From contig MGFX01000006.1 in assembly GCA_001792115.1 (NCBI GenBank), positions 146,537-210,536 of the forward strand: a stretch of 64,000 nt of DNA, read 5' to 3'. Under the pieces are notes generated by a model. It saw nothing but the letters and a program-made list of their open reading frames with translations. It did no database searches and was not told the origin of the DNA. Both the position numbers and the translations under genes were made by a program. The number at the start of each line of letters is the position of its first letter. The stretch's first letter is position 1. The DNA comes from Candidatus Woesebacteria bacterium RBG_16_42_24 (GTDB lineage: Bacteria; Patescibacteriota; Microgenomatia; UBA8517). This document shows positions 17,198 through 55,639 of this stretch, one piece after another.

Positions 17198-17317
17198 TTA
17201 TACCCCAAAATGAGGGTAAATGGAAGGAAAAAATCAGTATTCCGGTACTCCGGTATTCCAGTTTTCAGTTTATCGGTTTACCGGTTGACCAGTCTGACTG
17301 GACTACTGGAATACTGG

Positions 17318-17923
17318 TCAACTGATTCTTATAACAAAATTAGTAAGCTGCAAAAGGACATTTCCGTTGGCGTAAAGTGCATTAAGGACTTTAACAGCCT
17401 TTTTTAAATTCTGCGCGTTTTTTACCCAATCCCCATTTCCTTTTACGAGATCTTGGTGCCAGGAGGATATTAATTCATCCAAGAAATTTACGGCCTCCTC
17501 TCTTTTTTTAATGCTATCCACAAATAGTAATTTTTCTGGAGTCTTAAGTCTTAAGAATTCTGATACCTTTTCACTTTCCACTTTTAACTTTTTACTTTTC
17601 ACTCGTATAACCTGGCACCTCGATAAAATGGTGGGAAGGACCTTTTTGGAGGAGGTTGCAGAGAGAACATAATAGAGATTATCCTGAGGCTCCTCCAGAG
17701 CCTTCAAGAAGGCGTTTTGGGCCTCGATGGTCGCCTCATCTATACTCTTAATATATATAGCGCAAGGTCTATCTTGCGAGAGCCTGCTTATGCGAGAAAG
17801 GGCCCGGACATCTTCTATTTTTGCCAGTGGAAAGGGGGTTAGTTGGGCTTTAACCTTTTTTGATAGCTTCTCCACCTCTTTGACTAGGTCCGGGTCACTA
17901 CCTATTAGCAAAAATGAATGCAC
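17318..17923 (-). CDS. holB: DNA polymerase III delta-prime subunit-like clamp-loader protein
   Basis: 201 aa; AFLKALEEP and TILSRCQ motifs without Walker A. Confidence 0.55.
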   Translation of the reverse strand: MHSFLLIGSDPDLVKEVEKLSKKVKAQLTPFPLAKIEDVRALSRISRLSQDRPCAIYIKSIDEATIEAQNAFLKALEEPQDNLYYVLSATSSKKVLPTILSRCQVIRVKSKKLKVESEKVSEFLRLKTPEKLLFVDSIKKREEAVNFLDELISSWHQDLVKGNGDWVKNAQNLKKAVKVLNALYANGNVLLQLTNFVIRIS

Positions 17924-18030: not shown

Positions 18031-19770
18031 ATGGCTGCCCAAATGGCGGTTTCTTCGGCGGTAAATGGAGACAGTGCCAAGACCTTGGCTGACATTCTAG
18101 TTACCCAGGGGGCTTTTAGCGTAGATCTAGCCAAGCAAGTAAAACTCGCGGAGGTCCAAACGGGCAAATCCCAAGAAGAGATATTAAAGTCTCAGAATCT
18201 TGTGTCTGAAACCGACCTGGTTAAGGCCAAAGCTGCACTTTATAACATTCCCTACGTCGATTTGGCAAATTTACCCGCTTCTCCCGAAGCTCTCGCGGTC
18301 CTTCCTCAAGAAGTTGCAGAAAAGTTTAAGGTATTCCCTATTTCGGTAGATTCTGCTCAAAAACAACTGATACTTGCGATGACAGATCCGATGGATCTTA
18401 CCGCCATCGAATTTATTGAACAAAAAGCGTCATTAAGAGTTAAACCAGTAGCTGCAGAACCAACCAAAATTGCTGAATTTATCGTCTCCCGTTATTCAAC
18501 CTCCCTGGCCGAAGAGGTTACGGAGGCCCTGAAAGAAGTTGGCCCAGAGGGAGGAAATCTAAAGATTTTTGATACTACAAGGGTGGGCCTAATCAGGGAG
18601 GAGAAAATTGCCGAAATAGTTTCTCATATCCTGGAATTTGCCATGAAATCTCGCTCCTCCGATGTACATATAGAACCCCAGGAAAAGTCGACTAGAGTGC
18701 GCTATCGAATAGATGGAATATTGCAGGAAAAGCTTACTACTCCAAAAGATTTGCACGAAGCATTAGTTTCGAGGATAAAAATTCTATCTGGAATGAAGAT
18801 CGACGAAAGAAGGATTCCTCAAGATGGGAGGTTTAATTTTAAAGCCGGGGGGGAGGAAGTCGACCTTCGTGTTTCGTCTCTTCCCACCGCCTGGGGAGAA
18901 AAGATGGTTTTAAGGCTTCTTAAAAAATCCGGGGGGGTACCGTCTTTACCCGAACTTGGACTCCGCGGTCGCGCTCTTAAAAATTTAGAAGATGCAATTT
19001 TGCGCCCCCATGGAATTATTATCCTTTGTGGCCCCACAGGAAGCGGGAAAACAACGACTCTTTATTCAGTTATTACAAAAATCTCAACGCCCAAAGTAAA
19101 TATTATTACCCTGGAAGACCCTATCGAGTATAAGATTGCGGGGGTAAATCAGGTTCAGATTAATCCTGCGGCCGGACTGTCTTTTGCCTCGGGACTAAGG
19201 AGTTTTTTAAGGCAAGACCCGAATATTATTTTGGTCGGAGAAATTCGTGATAAAGAAACCGCAGATTTGGCAATACAGGCCTCATTAACCGGTCACTTGG
19301 TTTTTTCTACGCTTCATACTAACGATGCCTCGGGTGCCCTCCCCAGACTTATTGATATGGGAGCAGAGCCCTACCTTCTGGCTTCGTCGATAACCGCAAT
19401 TGTTGGTCAAAGAGTCGTCAGGCAAATACACAAAGATTGTAAAGTAGGATATTCCCCAGACCCTAAGGTGCTAGCCGATATGAAGGCGGTACTTGGGAGC
19501 TTGTGGCCGGTGGGGCGCGATGGACAGCTTTATAAAGGCGGAGGAGACGCGGAATGTGACAATTCAGGGTATTTCGGAAGAATCGGAATTTTTGAGGTAT
19601 TGCCAGTCAGCGAAAAAATTAGTAGGCTAATATTGGAGAGGGCAGCGAGTTCCGCCATTGAGCGTGAAGCCCGCGAAGAGGGAATGATTACTCTTAAACA
19701 AGACGGGTATTTGAAGGTCTTAGAGGGGCTCTCAACAATTGAAGAGGTTCTTAGAGTCGCCCAAGAATAA
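18031..19770 (+). CDS. pilB: Type IV pilus assembly ATPase PilB (GspE family, with N-terminal T2SSE_N domain)
   Basis: 579 aa; Walker A GPTGSGKTT, Asp box, His box HTNDA. Confidence 0.9.
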   Translation: MAAQMAVSSAVNGDSAKTLADILVTQGAFSVDLAKQVKLAEVQTGKSQEEILKSQNLVSETDLVKAKAALYNIPYVDLANLPASPEALAVLPQEVAEKFKVFPISVDSAQKQLILAMTDPMDLTAIEFIEQKASLRVKPVAAEPTKIAEFIVSRYSTSLAEEVTEALKEVGPEGGNLKIFDTTRVGLIREEKIAEIVSHILEFAMKSRSSDVHIEPQEKSTRVRYRIDGILQEKLTTPKDLHEALVSRIKILSGMKIDERRIPQDGRFNFKAGGEEVDLRVSSLPTAWGEKMVLRLLKKSGGVPSLPELGLRGRALKNLEDAILRPHGIIILCGPTGSGKTTTLYSVITKISTPKVNIITLEDPIEYKIAGVNQVQINPAAGLSFASGLRSFLRQDPNIILVGEIRDKETADLAIQASLTGHLVFSTLHTNDASGALPRLIDMGAEPYLLASSITAIVGQRVVRQIHKDCKVGYSPDPKVLADMKAVLGSLWPVGRDGQLYKGGGDAECDNSGYFGRIGIFEVLPVSEKISRLILERAASSAIEREAREEGMITLKQDGYLKVLEGLSTIEEVLRVAQE

Positions 19771-19775
19771 TACAG

Positions 19776-20840
19776 ATGAGTAATATAAAACATTTGCTTG
19801 AGCTCACGGTCGAAAGGAATGCTTCCGACCTTCACGCAATTAACGGTATTCCGCCAACCTTAAGAATAGAAGGCCAACTCCACCCCGTACCTAATGAGGC
19901 TGTTTCAACGCCCGACACAATCTATTCCTATCTTAAAGAGATTCTTTCTACGGAGATGCTCGAGAGGCTCGTTGTCAATAAAGAAATAGACTTTTCCCTT
20001 GCCTTTTCCGAGAAAGCCAGATTCAGGGTAAATGCCTACTCAACAAAGGGGTCTTTTGCAATTTCATTTAGAAAAATTCCGCTTGAAATACCCGAAATAG
20101 ACTCTTTGGGGCTTCCGAAAATTCTGCATTCGTTCACTTCCCTACGCCAAGGATTTATTTTGGTGACAGGCCCAACCGGACACGGAAAGTCGACGACAAT
20201 TGCTGCCGTACTTGATGAGATAAACCATACTCGGGAAACTCACATCATCACAATTGAGGACCCCATCGAATTTATCTTCAAATCTCAAAAATCGATAATT
20301 TCCCAAAGGGAGATGGGGGTCGACACGCACTCTTGGCAGATTGCCTTAAGAAGTGTTCTTAGAGAAGACCCCGACGTAGTTTTAGTCGGGGAAATGAGGG
20401 ATTATGAGACCATTGCGGCGGCTCTCACCGTAGCTGAAACGGGCCATTTAGTTTTTGCCACATTACACACAAACTCCGCTGCTCAGACGATAGATAGAAT
20501 TGTAGACGTGTTTCCGGACGAGCAACAGGAGCAGGTGCGCCTCCAGCTTTCAAACGTCATTGAGGCCGTATTTTCCATGAGACTTGTTCCCGGTACTACT
20601 GGAAACAGGGTTGTTGCCTATGAAATGATGTTGGGTTCCCCGGCAATCAAAACTGCCATTCGCGATGGCAAGACCCACCAAATAGACAATATTTTACAGA
20701 CTTCACAAGAGATTGGCATGAACACCCTGGAAGTATCCCTCGCCTCTTTAATCAAAAGCGGGAAGGTAAATCTTGAGACCGCCCAATCCTACTCCTTAAG
20801 ACCGGAAGAGTTAAACAGACTTATCCGCTCCGCCAGATAG
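19776..20840 (+). CDS. pilT: Twitching-motility retraction ATPase PilT
   Basis: 354 aa; GPTGHGKSTT Walker A; PilT-type AIRDGK region. Confidence 0.85.
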   Translation: MSNIKHLLELTVERNASDLHAINGIPPTLRIEGQLHPVPNEAVSTPDTIYSYLKEILSTEMLERLVVNKEIDFSLAFSEKARFRVNAYSTKGSFAISFRKIPLEIPEIDSLGLPKILHSFTSLRQGFILVTGPTGHGKSTTIAAVLDEINHTRETHIITIEDPIEFIFKSQKSIISQREMGVDTHSWQIALRSVLREDPDVVLVGEMRDYETIAAALTVAETGHLVFATLHTNSAAQTIDRIVDVFPDEQQEQVRLQLSNVIEAVFSMRLVPGTTGNRVVAYEMMLGSPAIKTAIRDGKTHQIDNILQTSQEIGMNTLEVSLASLIKSGKVNLETAQSYSLRPEELNRLIRSAR

Positions 20841-20845
20841 TCAAT

Positions 20846-22057
20846 ATGCAAAGGTATAGATATAAAGCCAAGAATAGAAATGGGGACATAGTAGCCGGGG
20901 AGGTAGAAGCCTCCACCTCGCTTTTGGCCGCAAAACTCGTTCGTCAAAAAGGCTTGGTAGTTATTTCTATAACGCCTATATCAAAAGGCATACTGGATCT
21001 ATTTGCCAAAGTAAGAGACAACATTTCCTATGGAGACCTGGCTGTATTCACCAGACAGCTTGCAACCATGATCAACGCGGGCCTTCCTCTTACCGAGGCA
21101 CTACTTATATTAAGAGCTCAGTCAAAGCCCGCTTTACAAAAAATTGTTGCTCAGGTTTTGGCAGACGTTGAGGGCGGAACAGCTCTCTCCTCGGCTTTCG
21201 CTAAACACTCGAGGGTTTTTTCTCCCTCGTATATTGCCTTGGTACGCTCGGGTGAGGTAGGAGGACTTTTAGATACTGTTTTGGTAAGACTCGCCGACAA
21301 TATGGAAAAAGAGCAAGAGTTTAGAGGTAAGGTAAAGGGGGCACTCATTTACCCCGCAATTATTGTGGCCGGAATGTTTATTGTGGGGTTTATTATGATG
21401 GTCTTTGTCATCCCCAGACTTCTTAGCCTATACACGGAATTTGGCGCAAAAATTGAGCTTCCGTTTCCGACACGGGTGTTAATGTTTGTTTCTGGAGCAT
21501 TGTCGAAATTCTGGCCAATTCTTCTTATCTTAACCGGCGCGGCAATATATGGATATGGGTTATATAGAAAGTCCCCGAAAGGAAGAAGAAAAACCGATGA
21601 GCTTCTTTTTAAAATTCCTATTTGGGGGGAGCTTCAAAGACAAATTATATTAACCGAGCTAACCAGGACCCTTTCTTTGTTAGTTGGAGCGGGAGTTTCT
21701 ATTCTTGAGAGCTTGCAAATAACCTCTGAAGTTGTACCGAACGTAGTCATATCCGATGCCCTTAAAGACGTCTCCAAGCAGGTAGAAAAAGGATTTCCTG
21801 TCGCCTATTCTTTTGCCAAACACCCCGACGCTTTCCCTTTTATTCTCTCCCAGATGATCTCGGTCGGAGAGGAAACGGGGAAAATGGACGAGGTATTATC
21901 AAAAGTTTCCCACATTTTTGAAGTTGAGAGCGATCAAAAAGTTAAAACCCTAACCAGCTCAATCGAGCCTATAATTATGATTTTCCTCGGGGTCGGAGTC
22001 GGATTTTTGGTAGTAGCCATTATTTTGCCGATTTACAACCTGACGACCCAATTATAA
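20846..22057 (+). CDS. pilC: Type IV pilus platform protein PilC (GspF family)
   Basis: 403 aa; two T2SS-F repeats, 3 TM helices. Confidence 0.85.
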   Translation: MQRYRYKAKNRNGDIVAGEVEASTSLLAAKLVRQKGLVVISITPISKGILDLFAKVRDNISYGDLAVFTRQLATMINAGLPLTEALLILRAQSKPALQKIVAQVLADVEGGTALSSAFAKHSRVFSPSYIALVRSGEVGGLLDTVLVRLADNMEKEQEFRGKVKGALIYPAIIVAGMFIVGFIMMVFVIPRLLSLYTEFGAKIELPFPTRVLMFVSGALSKFWPILLILTGAAIYGYGLYRKSPKGRRKTDELLFKIPIWGELQRQIILTELTRTLSLLVGAGVSILESLQITSEVVPNVVISDALKDVSKQVEKGFPVAYSFAKHPDAFPFILSQMISVGEETGKMDEVLSKVSHIFEVESDQKVKTLTSSIEPIIMIFLGVGVGFLVVAIILPIYNLTTQL

Positions 22058-22981: not shown

Positions 22982-23773
22982 ATGGAACTAATTTATACTT
23001 TTTTAGTCCTCATCTTGGGCCTAGCCGTGGGTTCATTCGTCTCGGCTCTCACCTATAGAGTCCCCAGGGGAATAAGTATTGCCAAGGGTCGCTCATTTTG
23101 CCCCAAATGCAGCGCCAAAATTTCCTGGTATGACAATATTCCCCTTCTCTCCTATTTGGCCTTAGGGGGAAAATGTAGGAGATGCAAAGAGAAAATTTCC
23201 CTGCGCTACCCCCTGATAGAGGGAGCGACTGCTCTCGGTTTCCTATACCTTTTTTCCTATAGCTGTCCCCCGGGAAGCTTTGAAGTAGCCTGTCTTTGGA
23301 AGAGTGCTACCGGAAGCCTTTATTTGCCATTTTTACTTTTTATTTTTACCTTAATGACGGCCATTTTCGTCATCGATTTGGAGAGTCAAATTATTCCTGA
23401 CAGCTTGGTTTTTACCCTTTTTATCTCAACTTTTCTAATTTTAATCAGCACAGACCTTCCAATCTTTACCCACCTTGTATCTGGATTTAGCGCGGCGCTT
23501 TTTCTTCTTGTTCTTTTTTTAATCACCAAACAAAAAGGAATGGGGTTGGGAGATGTTAAACTCGCCCTTTTTGCTGGGGCCTTTTTAGGATGGCCCCACA
23601 CGGTTACTTGGCTTTTTGCTAGTTTTGTACTTGGAGCAGTGGTGGGAGTTATCTTAATACTTCTTAAGAAAGCCTCTTTCGGAAAACACATTCCCTTCGG
23701 ACCCTTTTTGGTAGTATCCTTTTTTGTAAGCGTGTTTTTTGGAGAAAGGATTTTAGCCTGGTTAAATTTCTAA
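22982..23773 (+). CDS. pilD: Prepilin peptidase PilD (A24 family)
   Basis: 263 aa; tetra-Cys CPKC...CRRC zinc motif, polytopic, GLGDVKL catalytic region. Confidence 0.85.
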   Translation: MELIYTFLVLILGLAVGSFVSALTYRVPRGISIAKGRSFCPKCSAKISWYDNIPLLSYLALGGKCRRCKEKISLRYPLIEGATALGFLYLFSYSCPPGSFEVACLWKSATGSLYLPFLLFIFTLMTAIFVIDLESQIIPDSLVFTLFISTFLILISTDLPIFTHLVSGFSAALFLLVLFLITKQKGMGLGDVKLALFAGAFLGWPHTVTWLFASFVLGAVVGVILILLKKASFGKHIPFGPFLVVSFFVSVFFGERILAWLNF

Positions 23774-23780
23774 ATAAGGA

Positions 23781-24395
23781 ATGAAATTTTTCACTAAACA
23801 AGAACTGTTCGCGATTTTTGCCATTCTTCTTGTAATAATTTTAATCTCTCTTGCCAACTTTAAGGTTTCTTTAAGACGAGCCCGGGATGCCCAAAGAAAA
23901 AATGACATCGGGGCAATAGCAGACGGGCTTAATCGCTACGCAAATGATTTTGCCAAATATCCTCTCGCCTCCCCCGATGGGAAAATTTTAGCTTGTCGGC
24001 CGGTAATTTCTGAAGATAAAAACAAAAGAAAAATAGTCGAATTTGAACCTTGTGAATGGGAGAAAGACGCACTTGCCGACGCCCTGGACCCTACTTTCCC
24101 CAGCTATATCAAAAATTTGCCATCCGATCCACAAGACGATCTGGGCGTAAGCTATTTATATTTATCAAATGGAGCCAGATTTCAAATTTATGCGGTTCTT
24201 GAGGGAGTGGACGAGGACGAATATGACCCTAAAATAGTTGCCAGGAACTTAATGTGCGGGATAAGGATTTGTAATTTTGGCCGCTCAACAGGAGTTCCTC
24301 TTGATAAATCTATTGAAGAATACGAAAATGAATTAATAATAGAAAATTCCAAATTCCAACGACAAAGTCGGTTACTCTTTCCAAATGCCAAATAA
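23781..24395 (+). CDS. Pseudopilin / minor pilin-like protein (GspG-like helix)
   Basis: 204 aa; N-terminal hydrophobic helix then RARDAQRKNDIGAIADGL typical of T2SS/T4P pseudopilins. Confidence 0.65.
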   Translation: MKFFTKQELFAIFAILLVIILISLANFKVSLRRARDAQRKNDIGAIADGLNRYANDFAKYPLASPDGKILACRPVISEDKNKRKIVEFEPCEWEKDALADALDPTFPSYIKNLPSDPQDDLGVSYLYLSNGARFQIYAVLEGVDEDEYDPKIVARNLMCGIRICNFGRSTGVPLDKSIEEYENELIIENSKFQRQSRLLFPNAK

Positions 24396-24936
24396 ATATC
24401 AAAATTCTAAATTCATATTTGCTAGTTTGAAATATAAATTTAACTGGAAATTGGAAACTGGAAATTGGAAACTGGTTCGCGGTTTCACCTTAATAGAACT
24501 TTTGCTGGTTATATCTATTATCGGGATATTGGCCACATTCACCCTCTTTTATTATCCCTCAGCCCAAAAGCAGGCCAGAGACGCACAGAGAAGGTCGGAT
24601 ATTAAACAATACCAGACACTTCTTGAAACTTTTGCGGGAAGTAATAACAATCTTTATCCATCAAGAACTACCATTCGGCGCCCCGACGAGCTTTGCGGCA
24701 GCTGTGGTGCTGCTTGCCCCCTTGGACAGCTCAGTTGTCCCCGGGATCCTTCAAGTACTACTTATGAATATTCCTACCTAAGTAACGGGACAGGAAGCCC
24801 CAACAACACAGCAACGCAATATGTCTTGTGGACTACTTTAGAAAATATCCCCATTACAACTTATTGGATTGTTTGTTCCAGCGGAAGGACCGGTACCAGC
24901 ACAGTCGTTCCCCCTAATTCTGACTGCCCAATATGA
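24385..24936 (+). CDS. Pilin-like protein with prepilin leader ...WKLVRG/FTLIELLLVISIIGILA
   Basis: 183 aa; canonical GFTLIE motif; leader partly encoded by heptanucleotide repeats. Confidence 0.75.
   Translation: MPNKYQNSKFIFASLKYKFNWKLETGNWKLVRGFTLIELLLVISIIGILATFTLFYYPSAQKQARDAQRRSDIKQYQTLLETFAGSNNNLYPSRTTIRRPDELCGSCGAACPLGQLSCPRDPSSTTYEYSYLSNGTGSPNNTATQYVLWTTLENIPITTYWIVCSSGRTGTSTVVPPNSDCPI
24444..24475 (+). repeat. Heptanucleotide tandem repeat (YTGGAAA)x4 inside the leader-peptide coding region of 24385..24936
   Basis: ctggaaa ttggaaa ctggaaa ttggaaa ctgg read directly. Confidence 0.9.
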
Positions 24937-25442
24937 TTAACAGAAACTCAAAACTCAAAACTCAAAACTCAAAATTCCTGCGTGCGCAGGCAGGCAAAAC
25001 TAATTCTACATTCGGTTTTACCCTGATTGAGCTTCTCGTGGTTATATCGATAATTGCCGTTTTGGCCGGGATATCTATTTTCGGACTCCAGGGAGCCCGG
25101 GAGTCTGCAAGGGACGGTCGCAGGAAAGCCGACCTCGAACAAATTCGTGCCGGACTTGAATTATATAAGGCTGACTGCGGCGACTACCCGGCCACGTTAC
25201 CGCCCCCCCCAAATCCGCTTCTTGGAGATAATTCTCCTTCTTCTTGCTTGGCAACCAATACCTATATCTCAAGCGTTCCCGACGACCCCAACCCGGGGCG
25301 GGACTATAATTACGCAAGATTGACTTCTAGAACTTATGAACTTTGTTCAGCCCTTGAGAGAGTAACGTCGCCCAGTGTTTCTTGCGGCGGAGATTCCACC
25401 TGCGGTACGCCAGATTGTACTTATAAAGTAGTAAACCCCTAG
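24933..25442 (+). CDS. Pseudopilin-like protein (GspG-like), leader ...TNSTFG/FTLIELLVVISIIAVLAG
   Basis: 169 aa; GFTLIE motif; QGARESARDGRRKADL pseudopilin helix. Confidence 0.75.
   Translation: MINRNSKLKTQNSKFLRAQAGKTNSTFGFTLIELLVVISIIAVLAGISIFGLQGARESARDGRRKADLEQIRAGLELYKADCGDYPATLPPPPNPLLGDNSPSSCLATNTYISSVPDDPNPGRDYNYARLTSRTYELCSALERVTSPSVSCGGDSTCGTPDCTYKVVNP
24944..24964 (+). repeat. Heptanucleotide tandem repeat (AAACTCA)x3 at codons 4-11 of 24933..25442
   Basis: aaactca aaactca aaactca read directly, 9 nt after the ATG. Confidence 0.9.
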
Positions 25443-25453
25443 AGGACAAAATT

Positions 25454-25474
25454 TAATGACTAATGACTAATGAC
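25454..25474 (+). repeat. Heptanucleotide tandem repeat (TAATGAC)x3 creating three ATGs in three successive frames at the start of 25470..25958
   Basis: taatgac taatgac taatgac; SD AGAGGA at 25441-25446; only the third ATG (25470) is in frame with the pilin. Confidence 0.9.
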
Positions 25475-25958
25475 AAATGAAAGAAAAGGCTATACCCTTG
25501 TTGAAATTTTGGTAGTGATTTCCATCGTCGGCTTACTTTTTGGCGTAGGCTTCGTAAGTTATAGAGAGTTTTCGCGAAGACAAGCACTTGCCGGCGCTGC
25601 GCGGCAGGTTGGGGGCGACCTTAGGCTTGCACAGGAACTTGCCCTTGCCGGGAAAAAGCCAGCCGTTTGTGGAGCAAACGCCTTGGACGGGTACCAGTTC
25701 GTAGTCACCCCCCCCAATTCATACCGGGTCAGAGCCGTATGTAATCTTACTACGGCTATTGAGAAAACCGTTGTTGTCAGTTCCGGGGTGAGCATATCGG
25801 GCTTAGTCCCCGATCTTACTCCGTCCAACACGATTCTCTTTAAGACTTTGAGCGGGGGCACAAATATTCCCGCGGGTACAACAGTAATTACCCTTACCCA
25901 AGATGTAACTGCCGACACTCGTCGAATCACCGTAACTGCAGGAGGAGAAATACGATAA
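25470..25958 (+). CDS. Pseudopilin-like protein (GspH/FimT-like), leader MTNERKG/YTLVEILVVISIVGLL
   Basis: 162 aa; prepilin motif and N-terminal hydrophobic helix. Confidence 0.7.
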   Translation: MTNERKGYTLVEILVVISIVGLLFGVGFVSYREFSRRQALAGAARQVGGDLRLAQELALAGKKPAVCGANALDGYQFVVTPPNSYRVRAVCNLTTAIEKTVVVSSGVSISGLVPDLTPSNTILFKTLSGGTNIPAGTTVITLTQDVTADTRRITVTAGGEIR

Positions 25959-25959
25959 T

Positions 25960-25987
25960 AAACTCAAAACTCAAAACTCAAAACTCA
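25960..25987 (+). repeat. Heptanucleotide tandem repeat (AAACTCA)x4 directly after the stop of 25470..25958
   Basis: Four perfect units read directly. Confidence 0.9.
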
Positions 25988-25996
25988 AAATTATTT

Positions 25997-26017
25997 GGAA
26001 ACTGGAAACTGGAAACT
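25997..26017 (+). repeat. Heptanucleotide tandem repeat (GGAAACT)x3 upstream of / in frame with the 26039 pilin-like gene
   Basis: ggaaact x3 followed by ggaaatt; in-frame translation gives WKLETGN, as in the 24385 leader. Confidence 0.9.
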
Positions 26018-26038
26018 GGAAATTCCTCGCGAAGCGAG

Positions 26039-26467
26039 GTGGGTCAGTCTCTTTTTGAGGTAATTGTAGCCATCGGAGTTATCGCAGCAGTCATTGTGGG
26101 GGTTGTCGTTTTGGCCACGAATTCAATAAGAAATACTACTTTTACGCGAAATAATTCATTAGCAACCCGCTATGCCCAAGAGGCCATTGAGTGGTTGAGA
26201 GGAGAAAGGGACGCAGACTGGGCTACTTTTCGGGCTAATGCAGGGGTTTCCGGTAATAAGTATTGCCTCGATGCCCTTAACTGGACAAAGCCTCAAGCCT
26301 GTAATGCTACCGAAGTAATAAGCGATACTATACTTACCAGAAGTGTAACGTTTTCCAATATTCTTGCGACCCAAGTTAATGCTAACGTCACGGTCTCCTG
26401 GAACGATTCCCAAGGGGCGCACCAGGTGGCAACCAGCACTGTATACACCGATTGGAGGTCGAGGTAA
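26039..26467 (+). CDS. Pilin-like protein (GspI/PilV-like); apparent GTG start, may start upstream
   Basis: 142 aa; G/QSLFEVIVAIGVIAAV prepilin-type N-terminus; no upstream in-frame ATG. Confidence 0.6.
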   Translation: MGQSLFEVIVAIGVIAAVIVGVVVLATNSIRNTTFTRNNSLATRYAQEAIEWLRGERDADWATFRANAGVSGNKYCLDALNWTKPQACNATEVISDTILTRSVTFSNILATQVNANVTVSWNDSQGAHQVATSTVYTDWRSR

Positions 26468-26950
26468 ATGGGAAAAAGGGAAACTGGCGGCTTTTCGGTG
26501 ATTGAGATACTGGTTGTAGTTTTAGTATTTGTAACTCTTGCGGTTTTGGCCACCGAAAGCTTACTTCTTTCACTTAGGGGTTCAAAAAGGTCCGAGTCTT
26601 CAATCGGTGTTAGGGAGAACTTAAACTATGCGCTTTCGATTATGGAGAGACAATTGCACAATGCGGAGAGTATTACCCTTTGTACCCCGACAGAAATTAC
26701 CTATACTGATACCAACGCCCTGACTGCCAAGTTTTCCTGCGACCTTACTAATGGATTTGTAGCATCATCGTCTGCCCAGCTAACCTCAAGCGAAGTAAGA
26801 ATCACTGCCTGTAATTTTACTTGTACTACGGGAAGCGCGGGAATTCCAGCGTCCGTTTCAATTTCGCTTACGGCGGAGGACGCCGACTCGGGAGGCCTTG
26901 AACAGCAACAGGTAACCACCAATACCCAAATAATGCTCAGAACTTATTAG
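26468..26950 (+). CDS. Pseudopilin-like protein (GspJ/PilW-like), leader MGKRETG/GFSVIEILVVVLV
   Basis: 160 aa; GFSVIE prepilin motif. Confidence 0.7.
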   Translation: MGKRETGGFSVIEILVVVLVFVTLAVLATESLLLSLRGSKRSESSIGVRENLNYALSIMERQLHNAESITLCTPTEITYTDTNALTAKFSCDLTNGFVASSSAQLTSSEVRITACNFTCTTGSAGIPASVSISLTAEDADSGGLEQQQVTTNTQIMLRTY

Positions 26951-26994: not shown

Positions 26995-27900
26995 ATGATG
27001 AAAAACCTGTCCGGACCCCGAGAGAAGGGTCAAGCTCTTTTGGTAGTACTTCTTTCGATGGCCGTAATTCTAACTGTTGTACTCTCGATTATTTCCCGTT
27101 CTATAACCGATATTTCTCTGACTTCTTATTCAGAAGATGCTTTAAGAGCTTTCTCTGCAGCCGAGGCGGGAGTGGAGCGGGCTTTGATAGTCGGTACAGA
27201 CGTCAGCGAGGCAATTGGAGATGCATCCTTCATAGCAAACGTATCGGGGCTAGGAGAGGGCTCTAGCTTCTTCAATTATCCAGTCGAAATTTACTCTGGG
27301 GAGAGCGTTTATATTTGGTTCGTCTCCCATAATCCGACAACAGGTGCTCTGACTTGTTCGGGACAACCTTGTTTTACGGGAAATAGCGCAGAATTTTGTT
27401 GGGGAAAACCAGGCACGCCTCCTGATGATTCAAGTCCGGCAATAGAGGTTTCTTACTTGATAGATATGTCGCAGAGGGGCGTATTAAATGGAAATTTTGT
27501 AGACGCGCTTATTGGAAGGAGTGTTCATGATCCGAACTCCGGAAGACAATCAATTAACAAGTTTCAATTAGCTCAATCATCTGGGTGTAGTATGCCCGAT
27601 GGTACGAATTACGCTTTCACAAGCGGCAGCATTCCTTTGACGGGTATTCCTTGTTATCAAACTCCCGGGTGTATGCTAGCTGTTAGAGTCCGCTCGCTAT
27701 ACAATCCGGTTTCCAGCCCAAATCCAATAGGGATTAAGGTTGGGGGTGGACTTCTGCCAGCCCAAGGAAAATTAATCAAGTCTCAAGGGACCACTTCTTC
27801 CCAATCTTCGGTCAGGAAAATAGAAGCTTACAGGACATTCGGTGGGCCAGCGCCAATCTTTGACGCGACAGTATTCAGCCAGGGCAGTGTTAGCAAATAA
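26995..27900 (+). CDS. PilX/GspK-like minor pilin
   Basis: 301 aa; N-terminal GQALLVVLLSMAVILTVV hydrophobic segment; large Ser/Gly-rich periplasmic part. Confidence 0.55.
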   Translation: MMKNLSGPREKGQALLVVLLSMAVILTVVLSIISRSITDISLTSYSEDALRAFSAAEAGVERALIVGTDVSEAIGDASFIANVSGLGEGSSFFNYPVEIYSGESVYIWFVSHNPTTGALTCSGQPCFTGNSAEFCWGKPGTPPDDSSPAIEVSYLIDMSQRGVLNGNFVDALIGRSVHDPNSGRQSINKFQLAQSSGCSMPDGTNYAFTSGSIPLTGIPCYQTPGCMLAVRVRSLYNPVSSPNPIGIKVGGGLLPAQGKLIKSQGTTSSQSSVRKIEAYRTFGGPAPIFDATVFSQGSVSK

Positions 27901-49432: not shown

Positions 49433-49732
49433 CTTTGTGTTGGGTTTTGAATTGAGTCGCATTAAATTTCCCCTGTTGGCCTTTAGCCCCAAATTTGCTC
49501 TGTTTGAAAAAATCTGGAGTCCTAAAACCTAAAGAAGGTCCTGCTTTCTTCTTTACAAAGGAACTTTTCTGTTTCATATATCATAATTGTAAATTGTAAA
49601 TTGATAATTGTAAATTTATGTTTTATACTTTAATTGCCAAAGTGTGTTTAATGGATAGTCTTCGAGTAAGCTTCCGTTAATCCTCGAGGCGTTCGATGCT
49701 TTCAATCGTTAGAAAGGAGGTAATTAAAATAC

Positions 49733-49996
49733 ATGGCTACCAAGCTATTTGTAGGTAATCTTGACTATACTGTTACGTCCGACGATCTTAAGGCGGCATT
49801 TGCAGGAGTAGGCACAGTTGTAGACGCCGTAGTTATTTCAGACAAAATGACCGGCAGAAGTAGGGGTTTCGGATTTGTGGAAATGAGCTCTGAAGCAGAG
49901 GTTAAAGATGCAATCGAGAAACTGAATGGATCCGACCTTAAGGGTAGAAAGATAAACGTAAACGAAGCTCGCCCTCCCAGAGAAACCCAAGCCTAA
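49733..49996 (+). CDS. RRM-type RNA-binding protein
   Basis: 87 aa; RNP2 LFVGNL and RNP1 RGFGFVEM motifs. Confidence 0.85.
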   Translation: MATKLFVGNLDYTVTSDDLKAAFAGVGTVVDAVVISDKMTGRSRGFGFVEMSSEAEVKDAIEKLNGSDLKGRKINVNEARPPRETQA

Positions 49997-54015: not shown

Positions 54016-54276
54016 ATGCTTGAGAAAATCTCCGCTCCTGTATCGGTTGGATTCACCTTCGACCACACTACTCGTAGGGTAATCCCTAAATGGGTAATCT
54101 GGGAAGGGCGCACTTACCCTATTGAGAAAGTCGGGCTTCACCACACTTATAGAGCTGGTAGAACTCTATTCCATGTCTTTTCAGTTGCCTCAAAAACCCT
54201 TTTTTTTAGGCTTGTACTTAATACAGATACCTTGCATTGGAGATTGGAGGAGATTTCCGATGGAATGTCAGACTAA
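54016..54276 (+). CDS. Hypothetical small protein
   Basis: 86 aa ORF, no motif. Confidence 0.25.
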   Translation: MLEKISAPVSVGFTFDHTTRRVIPKWVIWEGRTYPIEKVGLHHTYRAGRTLFHVFSVASKTLFFRLVLNTDTLHWRLEEISDGMSD

Positions 54277-54391
54277 AAATCGGTTTATCGGTTTCTCGGT
54301 TATCAGATATCGGTGGATCGGCTTGTCAGATTACAAAATCCGAAAATCCGAAAAACTGAAATCAGAAGACTGATGACCTGACAAACTGAAT

Positions 54392-55639
54392 ATGTTGGCT
54401 TTCAATCCCAAACCCTCAACCATAATGCACCTGGACCTTAATTCCTGTTTTGCGACGATTGAGCAACAGGCAAATCCGCAGCTTCGGGGCAAACCCATCG
54501 CGGTTGCCGCCTACACCACCCCATCCGGTTGCATCATTGCCCCTTCGGTTGAGGCCAAAAGATATGGGATCAAGGTCGGAATGAGGGTCAAAGACGGCAA
54601 ACTTCTCTATCCAGGCTTGATAGTTCTTTCTCCCGACCCATGGAAATATAGAAACGTACACCTTGCCCTTCGAAGAATCGTTTCCGATTATACCGACAAA
54701 TTTGTGCCGAAGAGTATTGATGAATTCGTTTTAGACCTAGAAGGATACCCCTGTTTAGTAGCAAGTAGTATGCAGCAAGTAGCAAGGGAGATTAAGGAGA
54801 GAATCAAGGAGGAGATCGGAGAATGGCTGACGGTTTCAGTGGGAATTGCCCCAAACAAATTTCTTGCCAAAACTGCAGCCTCCCTCCATAAACCCGACGG
54901 GTTGGATGAGATTGATAAAGAAAACTTTGCCAAAGTTTATTCGGGCCTTAAACTTACGGAGCTATGTGGGATAAAACTTCGAAACGCAGTTCGGCTAAAC
55001 AACATGGGCATATTTAGCGTTTTGGATTTCTTCGAGGCACCATATCCTAAGCTGAAGGCTGCCTTTGAATCGATCCTTGGATACTATTGGTATTTGCGCT
55101 TGCGAGGTTGGGAAATAGACGACGTTGTTTTTGGCAGACGCTCATATGGCAATTCTTTCGCCCTGCCTAGGCCATTAGTAACAGTTGAAGAGCTCTCTCC
55201 TGTTCTTTCTAAACTCGTTCAAAAAATGGGAGCAAGATTTAGGCGGGCTGGATATAAAGCCAAAGGAGTTCATTTGGCAATCGCCTACCGGGACGGAACA
55301 TTTTGGCACCAGGGAGTTACAACCACAAGAATCTTATTCGACAGCAGGGACATTTATAGAGTCGCATTTAGACTTCTTAATCGAAGTCCCTATAGAAAAG
55401 CTGTCAGGGAGCTCGCCGTATCGGTTTTTAACTTGATAGATGAGCCGTCTTTGCAGCTTGAACTATTTGACGACCTAAGGAAAAAGGAGCGAATAGTGAA
55501 TGCGGTCGATGCCGTAAATGAACGCTGGGGAGACTTTGTCATAACTCCAGCTCGCATGCTTGGAACTAAAAATGCCGTAATTGACAGAATCGCCTTTGGC
55601 GGAGTCAAGGAACTCGAGGAATTTACCCTTCGATATTAG
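54392..55639 (+). CDS. dinB: Y-family DNA polymerase IV
   Basis: 415 aa; MHLDLNSCFATIE (UmuC motif I), SVGIAPNKFLAK. Confidence 0.85.
   Translation: MLAFNPKPSTIMHLDLNSCFATIEQQANPQLRGKPIAVAAYTTPSGCIIAPSVEAKRYGIKVGMRVKDGKLLYPGLIVLSPDPWKYRNVHLALRRIVSDYTDKFVPKSIDEFVLDLEGYPCLVASSMQQVAREIKERIKEEIGEWLTVSVGIAPNKFLAKTAASLHKPDGLDEIDKENFAKVYSGLKLTELCGIKLRNAVRLNNMGIFSVLDFFEAPYPKLKAAFESILGYYWYLRLRGWEIDDVVFGRRSYGNSFALPRPLVTVEELSPVLSKLVQKMGARFRRAGYKAKGVHLAIAYRDGTFWHQGVTTTRILFDSRDIYRVAFRLLNRSPYRKAVRELAVSVFNLIDEPSLQLELFDDLRKKERIVNAVDAVNERWGDFVITPARMLGTKNAVIDRIAFGGVKELEEFTLRY

Follow-up and report, generated by a model that had tools for sequence, protein, structure and literature searches.

A complete operon for type IV pili is present in the stretch of DNA analysed here (64,000 nt, hereafter the window), which comes from an uncultivated member of Candidatus Woesebacteria; the operon proteins are identical to OGM15377-OGM15384 of the bins RBG_19FT_COMBO_42_9 and RBG_16_42_24. 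PilB-, PilT- and PilC-like genes come first, followed by the major pilin, a prepilin peptidase, seven pilin-like genes and PilM/N/O-like genes. A search of the window against Rfam returned four tRNAs only, and a scan for promoters and terminators between 22000 and 30500 gave no more than chance level. The genes referred to below are the following:

18031-22057: PilB-, PilT- and PilC-like genes
22345: major pilin
22982..23773, + strand: prepilin peptidase of the PilD type (Pfam A24_N_bact and Peptidase_A24 on the identical gene in locus L001)
24385..24936, + strand: g3, pilin-like (N_methyl/TIGR02532 match, residues 31-54)
24933..25442, + strand: g4, pilin-like, GspG-like, whose ATG overlaps the g3 stop (ATGA)
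25470..25958, + strand: g5, GspH/FimU-like minor pilin (GspH Pfam match of 22.8, above the cut-off of 21)
26042..26467, + strand: g6, codon of the glycine at -1 and mature PilV/GspI-like minor pilin (QSLFEV...) up to the stop
26468..26950, + strand: g7, GspJ/PilW-like minor pilin (weak GspJ/PilV matches)
26995..27900, + strand: g8, GspK/PilX-like minor pilin (weak PilX_N and GspK matches)

The gene g6 encodes a protein with the class III signal known from PilV/GspI proteins of type IV pili and type II secretion, namely Gly at -1, Glu at +5 and a helix-forming N-terminus of about 20 hydrophobic residues (G/QSLFEVIVAIGVIAAVIVGVVVLA), and G-Q-S-L-F-E around the cleavage site is invariant in an alignment of 55 homologous sequences. 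Unlike in PilV/GspI, the residue at +1 is Q instead of F or M. The best NCBIfam match is TIGR02523 (PilV), with 28.5 bits and E = 1.7e-6, which lies below the family cut-off of 52.2, and TIGR01707 is matched with 18.9 bits, also below its cut-off (44.35); g6 is at best a distant PilV/GspI relative, although some of its JGI homologues carry the name PilV. Synteny and a confident structure model speak for the assignment, weak as it is by HMM score. The gene is placed between the GspH/FimU-like g5 and the GspJ/PilW-like g7, which has a GGAGG before its ATG and begins immediately after the g6 stop, with the GspK/PilX-like g8 coming next; g5 to g8 are the conserved tip/priming set of minor pilins in H-I-J-K order, with g6 as its second member. 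Genes resembling T2SSF/PilC, PilM_2 and T2SSM_b in the same operon, together with the PilD at 22982, link g6 to pilus assembly. An AlphaFold2 model (pLDDT 94.9) predicts an N-terminal helix of 55 residues (5-59) and a beta-sheet with strands at 100-137, so that g6 is predicted to adopt the lollipop fold, in which a long N-terminal helix packs on a beta-sheet. Foldseek found no significant match of this model in the PDB, which means that the fold assignment is drawn from architecture only, and searching PDB sequences with a profile brought up merely weak matches to pilin N-termini (TcpA, CFA/III).

The region between the end of g5 and the mature part of g6 contains the following features:

25941..25947, + strand: Shine-Dalgarno GGAGGAG, within the last codons of g5 and 7 nt 5' of ATA 25955
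25955..25960, + strand: ATA ATA, the first of which (25955-57) corresponds in position to the start codon of orthologues and is the proposed near-cognate start
25960-25990, + strand: (AAACTCA)4.4 array (TRF, 100% matches)
25960..25992, + strand: (AAACTCA)4.4 plus AATT, 33 nt, encoding NSKLKTQNSK
25995..25997, + strand: TTG, out of frame by +1 (from the simulation of unit changes)
25996..26022, + strand: (TGGAAAC)3.9 array (TRF, 100% matches), encoding GNWKLETGN and holding an in-frame CTG at 26009-11
26025..26039, + strand: hairpin CCTCGC-GAA-GCGAGG, pairing up to and including the G of GTG 26039 (-10.4 kcal/mol in a 31-nt context, z = -2.3)
26039..26041, + strand: GTG, start in the public annotation, giving a product of 142 aa (OGM15383.1)

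The frame of g6 is open from 25844 and reads TIINSKLKTQNSKLFGNWKLETGNSSRSEVG/QSLFEV upstream of the cleavage point, the in-frame translation 5' of 26039 being ...RRRNTIINSKLKTQNSKLFGNWKLETGNSSRSEVG/QSLFEV. TRF and translation confirm the repeats and their in-frame reading as described in the initial annotation, which was also right in stating that the gene is devoid of an in-frame ATG: GTG 26039 is the sole ATG, GTG or TTG in frame before the cleavage-site glycine. A change in repeat number could not bring an ATG into frame, as there is no ATG in any frame from 25936 to 26038.

Related arrays are found in the neighbouring genes, with units that differ from gene to gene in the window (AAACTCA, GGAAACT, TAATGAC). 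The leader of g3 (33 residues, MPNKYQNSKFIFASLKYKFNWKLETGNWKLVRG/FTLIE) holds a (GGAAATT/GGAAACT) array at 24442-24475; that of g4 (28 residues) holds (AAACTCA)4.4 at 24944-24974, followed by a GC hairpin (CCTGCG-TG-CGCAGG); and the ATG of g5 is itself carried by a (TAATGAC)3.9 array (25454-25480). Six copies of GGAAACTGGAAA were counted against 0.81 expected from shuffled sequence, and six of AAACTCAAAACTCA against 0.07. The 33 nt at 25960-25992 are 100% identical to 24944-24976 in the g4 leader and are read in the same codon phase; neither this identity nor a comparison of the g5-g6 junction had been mentioned in the initial annotation. It had pointed to the peptide WKLETGN as common to the leaders of two pilin-like genes. 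The peptide is present in both, but it follows automatically from the DNA: since 7 and 3 have no common factor, a heptamer array of at least 21 nt encodes one cyclic heptapeptide in all three frames, and the shared peptide therefore reflects the shared DNA repeat and is silent on frame and translation. We consequently rejected it as a sign of translation or of a common frame. All three frames are open across the g6 arrays, which fold less than 195 of 200 shuffled versions.

A homology search with g6 yielded 103 relatives, all of which have G/QSLFE, with leaders such as MKKG, MNKG and MKG. For comparison of the gene junction, the loci of the closest relatives were retrieved, and then 69 genome loci and 80 metagenome loci. 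In the relatives the upstream GspH-like gene ends in ...GGAGGAGAAATAAGA-TGA, and at most loci the orthologous start overlaps this TGA, 7 nt past GGAGGAG. Such an overlapping start is present in 47 of the 59 loci with an identifiable upstream gene among the 66 genome loci examined (ATG in 37, GTG in 8 and TTG in 2). In the window g5 ends in GGA GGA GAA ATA CGA TAA (stop codon at 25956-58), that is ...GGAGGAGAAATACGA-TAA, with GGAGGAG and the 7-nt spacer unchanged, and because the stop is TAA and not TGA, the overlapping homologous codon reads ATA (25955-57). The junction thus is gcaGGAGGAGaaatacgaTAAtaa in the window versus acaGGAGGAGaaataagaTGAaaa, gcaGGAGGAGaagtgagaTGAgag and gccGGAGGGGagataagaTGAgaa in L019, L021 and L022, respectively. 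The nearest lineage with arrays, represented by L021 and L106 (62-63% identity), starts at the junction ATG, and its leader of 38-42 residues opens with the translation of a AAAACTCA-type array (MRENSKTQKLQNSK...); the two strains differ by an in-frame indel of 12 nt. A joint g5-g6 product made by -1 frameshifting or read-through was tried as a candidate and rejected, as there is no slippery site, the orthologues use plain NTGA coupling and the cleavage site would fall after an exported domain.

The window is not alone in this junction. L033, a single-cell genome of a different lineage (49% identity), has ...GAAGGAGAAATAAAA-TAA-TAA with ATA ATA in frame, a typical basic leader (IIKKRNIKG/Q) and an intact conserved N-terminus, before which there is no canonical start (ATG, GTG or TTG) at all; canonical starts are likewise missing from a third orthologue, L146. 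In a survey of 633 distinct pilin-type sites, the only startless ones, for which no canonical start would leave a leader of 3 residues or more, are g6 of the window, L033, L146 and one dubious site.

From these comparisons we tentatively favour, at slightly less than even confidence, a low-level translation of g6 from ATA 25955 through a repeat-encoded leader. The homologous position, the Shine-Dalgarno at normal spacing and the open frame come together at this codon, which is in frame with G/QSLFEV. The initial annotation had suggested a non-canonical start, for example the CTG at 26009; the suggestion of such a start agrees with what appears the most likely reading, but the candidate site lies upstream of both repeats. 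Ribosomes would initiate at ATA 25955 at a low level, with help from the strong Shine-Dalgarno and from coupling to the termination of g5, and the product would carry the leader (M)INSKLKTQNSKLFGNWKLETGNSSRSEVG, with 30 residues, five K/R, two E and a net charge of +3, comparable in length to the leaders of g3 and g4, which hold the same arrays. The PilD-type peptidase (22982..23773), the enzyme expected to cleave the leaders of g3, g4 and g6, would cut it before QSLFEV, and the two heptamer arrays would be part of a translated and cleaved-off leader, as in the two upstream pilin genes. A low yield may be tolerable in a subunit of the tip complex, needed at about one copy per pilus. Some caution is nevertheless appropriate. 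As the arrays are stop-free in all frames, finding the ATA in frame is only a 1-in-3 coincidence, and AUA is a weak initiator wherever measured: in E. coli, AUA and CUG initiate at about 1-2% of AUG, with a range of 0.02-3% (bioRxiv 10.1101/063800). Furthermore, orthologues in which the junction stop is TAA or TAG mostly begin at an ATG of their own (L036, L075, L079, L091, L095), normally situated a few codons 3', which speaks against the ATA and in favour of a downstream start. Near-cognate AUU start codons are known from infC and pcnB of E. coli. Like these genes, g6 has a one-base variant of AUG behind a good Shine-Dalgarno where its relatives have AUG, and low expression is to be expected; unlike them, the codon is AUA and not AUU, its use is deduced from comparison, and it arises as a by-product of a synonymous TGA-to-TAA stop change in the overlapping g5.

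The downstream start seen in the TAA/TAG-junction orthologues appears to be the usual evolutionary repair, and GTG 26039 could be the repair here. Translation would then begin at the annotated GTG, leaving 80 nt with the arrays and the hairpin as an untranslated spacer, and the prepilin would either carry an fMet-Gly leader or be used without normal processing. It is the sole canonical start in frame, an array lies upstream of the start codon in 7 of 53 repeat-bearing pilin sites, and leaders of 3 residues (MKG) do occur in relatives (P0008, L066, L074). Against this stand the absence of a Shine-Dalgarno at a usable distance from the GTG, the pairing of its G in the GC hairpin and the leader itself, whose two uncharged residues (MG) the initial annotation had rightly called implausible: the leaders of 118 homologues span 3-42 residues, none being as short as MG, and 117 of the 118 contain K or R before the cleavage site. 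By the positive-inside rule, an uncharged leader with arginines following the helix runs counter to expectation. Archaeal prepilin peptidases, too, fail on so short a leader, with a minimum of 3 residues for PibD and 5 for FlaK (PMC4187195). Taken together, we regard a start at GTG 26039 as unlikely.

The CTG at 26009 inside the GGAAACT array, which would give the leader METGNSSRSEVG, is in frame and belongs to the same class of near-cognate codons as judged from the E. coli measurements cited above. It would parallel a possible TTG-initiated METGNWKLVRG in g3, and one pilin gene of L074 has its sole canonical start, a TTG, within a (GGAAATT)5 array. This CTG, however, is preceded by GGAAA only and not by a Shine-Dalgarno, has no positional homology to the orthologous starts and lies 60 nt downstream of the strong conserved Shine-Dalgarno, which stands before the ATA, for which reasons we consider initiation there very unlikely.

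Additional copies of the locus were sought by an exact look-up of the flanking proteins, and 18 loci, 99.94-100% identical to the window, were found in independently assembled Rifle-type groundwater metagenomes (ENA, JGI, Logan). Thirteen contigs span the end of g5 to QSLFEV and are identical base for base, one partial contig agrees, and all 14, coming from separate samples, have ACGATAATAA and the same arrays; the contigs differ by SNPs elsewhere, forming at least three haplotypes. A sequencing or assembly error that removed an ATG was worth considering, as repeats are error-prone in assemblies and the contigs L007, L017 and L018 end in or next to arrays. These ends are due to the 33 nt that occur twice without a difference, at 24944 and at 25960, and the agreement of repeat numbers across different samples and assemblers excludes such an error; sequence error as the cause of the missing ATG is thus effectively refuted, and we assign it almost no weight. 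An exact-pattern scan of the metagenome_contigs collection with the hairpin and the N-terminus gave no match, this collection evidently being without the population.

The same contigs bear on the proposal of the initial annotation that g6 is phase-OFF and depends on a change in repeat number, or recombination, to acquire a start. More generally, g6 may at present be untranslated, either as an early pseudogene after recent loss of its start or as a phase-OFF copy, which would be switched ON by gain of one or loss of two GGAAACT units or by recombination between the g4 and g6 arrays, grafting the ATG of g4 onto g6 in frame. The two perfect 7-nt arrays at 25960-26022, with a unit not divisible by 3, have the layout of a contingency locus, and a simulation of unit changes showed that one GGAAACT unit more, or two fewer, would bring TTG 25995 into frame with a leader of 19 or 12 residues, respectively. 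On paper the switch is thus possible. TTG 25995 is the only start recruitable by repeat change, an ATG brought into frame in this way being rejected given the lack of ATG in the region, and any change by a single unit in either array puts ATA 25955 out of frame. Further points in favour of a silent g6 are the 33 nt shared by the arrays of g4 and g6 without a mismatch and in one codon phase, the prevalence of frame-shifting over frame-keeping unit lengths in related loci (see the counts below) and the wholly different leaders of strains with nearly identical mature PilV-like proteins (P0098, P0106, P0107). On the other hand, no copy-number difference in the g6 arrays was seen among the 14 contigs with their three or more haplotypes, which are consensus assemblies of one clonal population, and database cluster members of g2 to g5 and g7 each have a single length. 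The arrays count merely 3-5 units, TTG 25995 has no Shine-Dalgarno, and 78 of 80 array-bearing pilin genes of relatives possess an in-frame canonical start, that is, they are ON, unlike classical contingency loci. Finally, the ORF is intact, and as a core pilin of the tip complex its loss should cripple an otherwise intact operon, judging from P. aeruginosa and type II secretion systems. Phase variation of g6 is unsupported, and a presently silent g6 seems to us improbable on the whole. Repeat contingency loci such as opa of Neisseria with its CTCTT repeats, or the hmw promoters of Haemophilus, for which 7-bp repeats have been reported, resemble g6 in having non-triplet tandem units, in the present case placed after the start codon and ahead of the functional part, in a gene for a surface structure; they differ in that the g6 arrays are short, show no copy-number polymorphism and are almost always in frame in relatives.

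Returning to the preferred start at ATA 25955, the public model of 142 aa (MGQSLFEV) is probably truncated at its N-terminus, and, as the recurrence in L033 and L146 demonstrates, gene callers will miss or shorten similar genes. Compared with known PilV/GspI proteins, g6 would stand apart by lacking a canonical start at the conserved position and by a putative leader that is very long and repeat-encoded. If true, initiation at AUA in a core priming pilin would add to the few natural candidates for an AUA start, and the next gene could be throttled by a silent change in the stop codon that overlaps it. In the ultrasmall CPR bacteria, type IV pili are believed to play a central part in host attachment and DNA uptake. 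Even so, the startless g6 is a modest curiosity, with no demonstrated on/off switch.

More interesting, and broader than the start of g6, is the enrichment of arrays before prepilin cleavage sites across Woesebacteria. In 778 kb of their pilin loci, arrays of at least 2.8 copies were distributed by unit length as follows:

6-nt unit: 12 arrays
7-nt unit: 98 arrays
8-nt unit: 26 arrays
9-nt unit: 14 arrays

In a smaller first survey of 473 kb, the shuffled control gave about one period-7 array, and 55 of the 76 period-7/8 arrays ended in the 80 nt before a prepilin cleavage site, a zone making up about 7% of the sequence, which corresponds to an enrichment of about 11-fold. In 35 of 53 such genes the array follows an in-frame canonical start, so that it is translated as leader, and leaders with an array have a median length of 17 residues versus 9 without. 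Copy numbers in relatives are about 3-7. Orthologous genes keep the position of the array while the unit differs, dozens of units being found in relatives, as exemplified by g4:

Window: leader start MINRNSKLKTQNSKF, unit AAACTCA
Orthologue L021: leader start MIIKNSKIQKLKNSKF, unit AAAAACTC
Orthologue L022: leader start MIIKNLKFKINNF, unit AATTTAA
Orthologue L082: leader start MILISKIKNKESKIE, unit ATCAAAG

How this pattern should be read is a matter of interpretation. The arrays could be selected, for mutability or for unstructured A-rich initiation regions, but they could equally be merely tolerated, the leader being discarded after cleavage, and reflect mutational bias in a disposable peptide. 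A more far-reaching proposal, to which we attach a rather low probability, is that the arrays are no debris of slippage but a selected, lineage-wide module tuning or switching minor pilins, with the startless g6, L033 and L146 as parked or low-expression states using AUA or AUU. The arrays would then be kept just after the start codon, in the cleaved leader, across deep divergence, and would act by slippage, by recombination between the identical arrays of neighbours or as A-rich unstructured initiation tracts; the pattern could in this case point to an undescribed regulation or diversification of pilus composition in Patescibacteria.

Heptamer arrays at gene starts are known as a kind, namely as TAACTGA repeats (PMC4679880), as STRR and from work cited in PMC4692102, and an over-representation of heptameric repeats in bacteria is likewise on record. 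A search of the literature on repeat-encoded pilin leaders in CPR gave nothing directly relevant, and we found no description of a concentration of arrays in translated pilin leaders of these bacteria. The arrays described here share with the TAACTGA-type and STRR families the short 7-nt repeats (2-6 copies) at or just before gene starts, the translation of some arrays at protein termini, a possibly translational role and a length that varies between relatives. They differ from them in that the unit varies by gene and by genome, instead of a single heptamer occurring at many loci, and in that they are concentrated in the leader-coding parts of pilin genes of CPR/Patescibacteria, where most of them are translated.

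In strains represented by three sets of loci (L064, L093/L094 and L095/L096; proteins P0098, P0106 and P0107), the mature PilV-like proteins are nearly identical, and their leaders and 5' regions are wholly different: in one of the three, a GTG junction, where the stop of the upstream gene overlaps the start, is accompanied by (CATTTTC)4 and (ATGGAAG)4 arrays; a second encodes a distinct, repeat-rich leader of 39 residues; and in the third, the junction is TAA, the ATG is new and the leader is 14 residues long. In another fetched locus, L146 (positions 100-200), five copies of AGTATWT and then four of AAATACT, heptamers that are mutually reverse-complementary, stand ahead of the PilV-like orthologue and extend up to its glycine codon; at this locus, the orthologue has no in-frame ATG, GTG or TTG, and the upstream pilin gene is absent. 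In some relatives, at L074 (1476-1518) and L077 (3445-3498), the sole canonical start of a pilin gene is a TTG within an array of repeated GGAAATT or GAAATTG units. Every unit of these arrays carries a TTG, whose frame rotates from unit to unit, and an in-frame start is therefore provided at any array copy number. As judged from their repeat units, such start arrays are the opposite of a phase switch.

In the window itself, within 25441-25480, the GspH/FimU-like gene g5 is preceded by a (TAATGAC)3.9 array, each unit of which holds one ATG, one TAA and one TGA. The array's first ATG (25456) begins a mini-ORF of four codons, MTND, whose stop TAA (25468-70) shares bases with the real g5 ATG at 25470 (TAATG). 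The ribosome-binding motif lies upstream:

25441-46: Shine-Dalgarno sequence AGAGGA, 9 nt ahead of the ATG at 25456

On sequence grounds, this arrangement looks like a termination-reinitiation relay made of repeats.

Two further pilin leaders, those of the GspG-like g4 and of the PilV/GspI-like g6, carry GC-rich palindromes:

24976-24990: CCTGCG-TG-CGCAGG, in the g4 leader, 3' of an A-rich array
26025-26039: CCTCGC-GAA-GCGAGG, in the g6 leader, 3' of an A-rich array

The motif CCTCGCGA is found too in the leader of the orthologue in L021 (about 2870-2900), where it is read as CCT CGC GAG, whereas the codons in the window are TCC TCG CGA; this difference in codon phase hints that CCTCGCGA is conserved as nucleotides rather than as peptide.

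The ends called for two other genes in the operon are provisional. The first gene, whose processing is only putative, is pilin-like:

23781-24395: g2, beginning MKFFTKQELFAIFAILLVII

Its N-terminus has no glycine ahead of the hydrophobic helix, and its family matches are to GspG and weak only; the C-terminal tail traverses a (AAATTCC)2.3 repeat (24344-24359), and the 3' end overlaps the start of g3. The start of the GspK/PilX-like g8 (26995-27040) is also uncertain, since no obvious Shine-Dalgarno sequence precedes its ATGATG at 26995; gene calls vary across assemblies (301, 300 and 286 aa) despite identical DNA.

Heptamer arrays also exist outside the pilin cluster, as one example demonstrates:

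49585-49616: (AATTGTA)4.6 array, about 115 nt 5' of the gene for a small RRM-type RNA-binding protein (ATG near 49733)

Tandem arrays of 8-nt units form both arms of two long intergenic hairpins, for example GTATTCCG in three copies opposite three of ACTGGAAT:

17228-17322: intergenic hairpin, -37.7 kcal/mol, z = -5.8
54272-54390: intergenic hairpin, -36.5 kcal/mol, z = -4.6

The folding of these hairpins was matched by none of 200 shuffles. The second lies directly 5' of a gene beginning at 54392.
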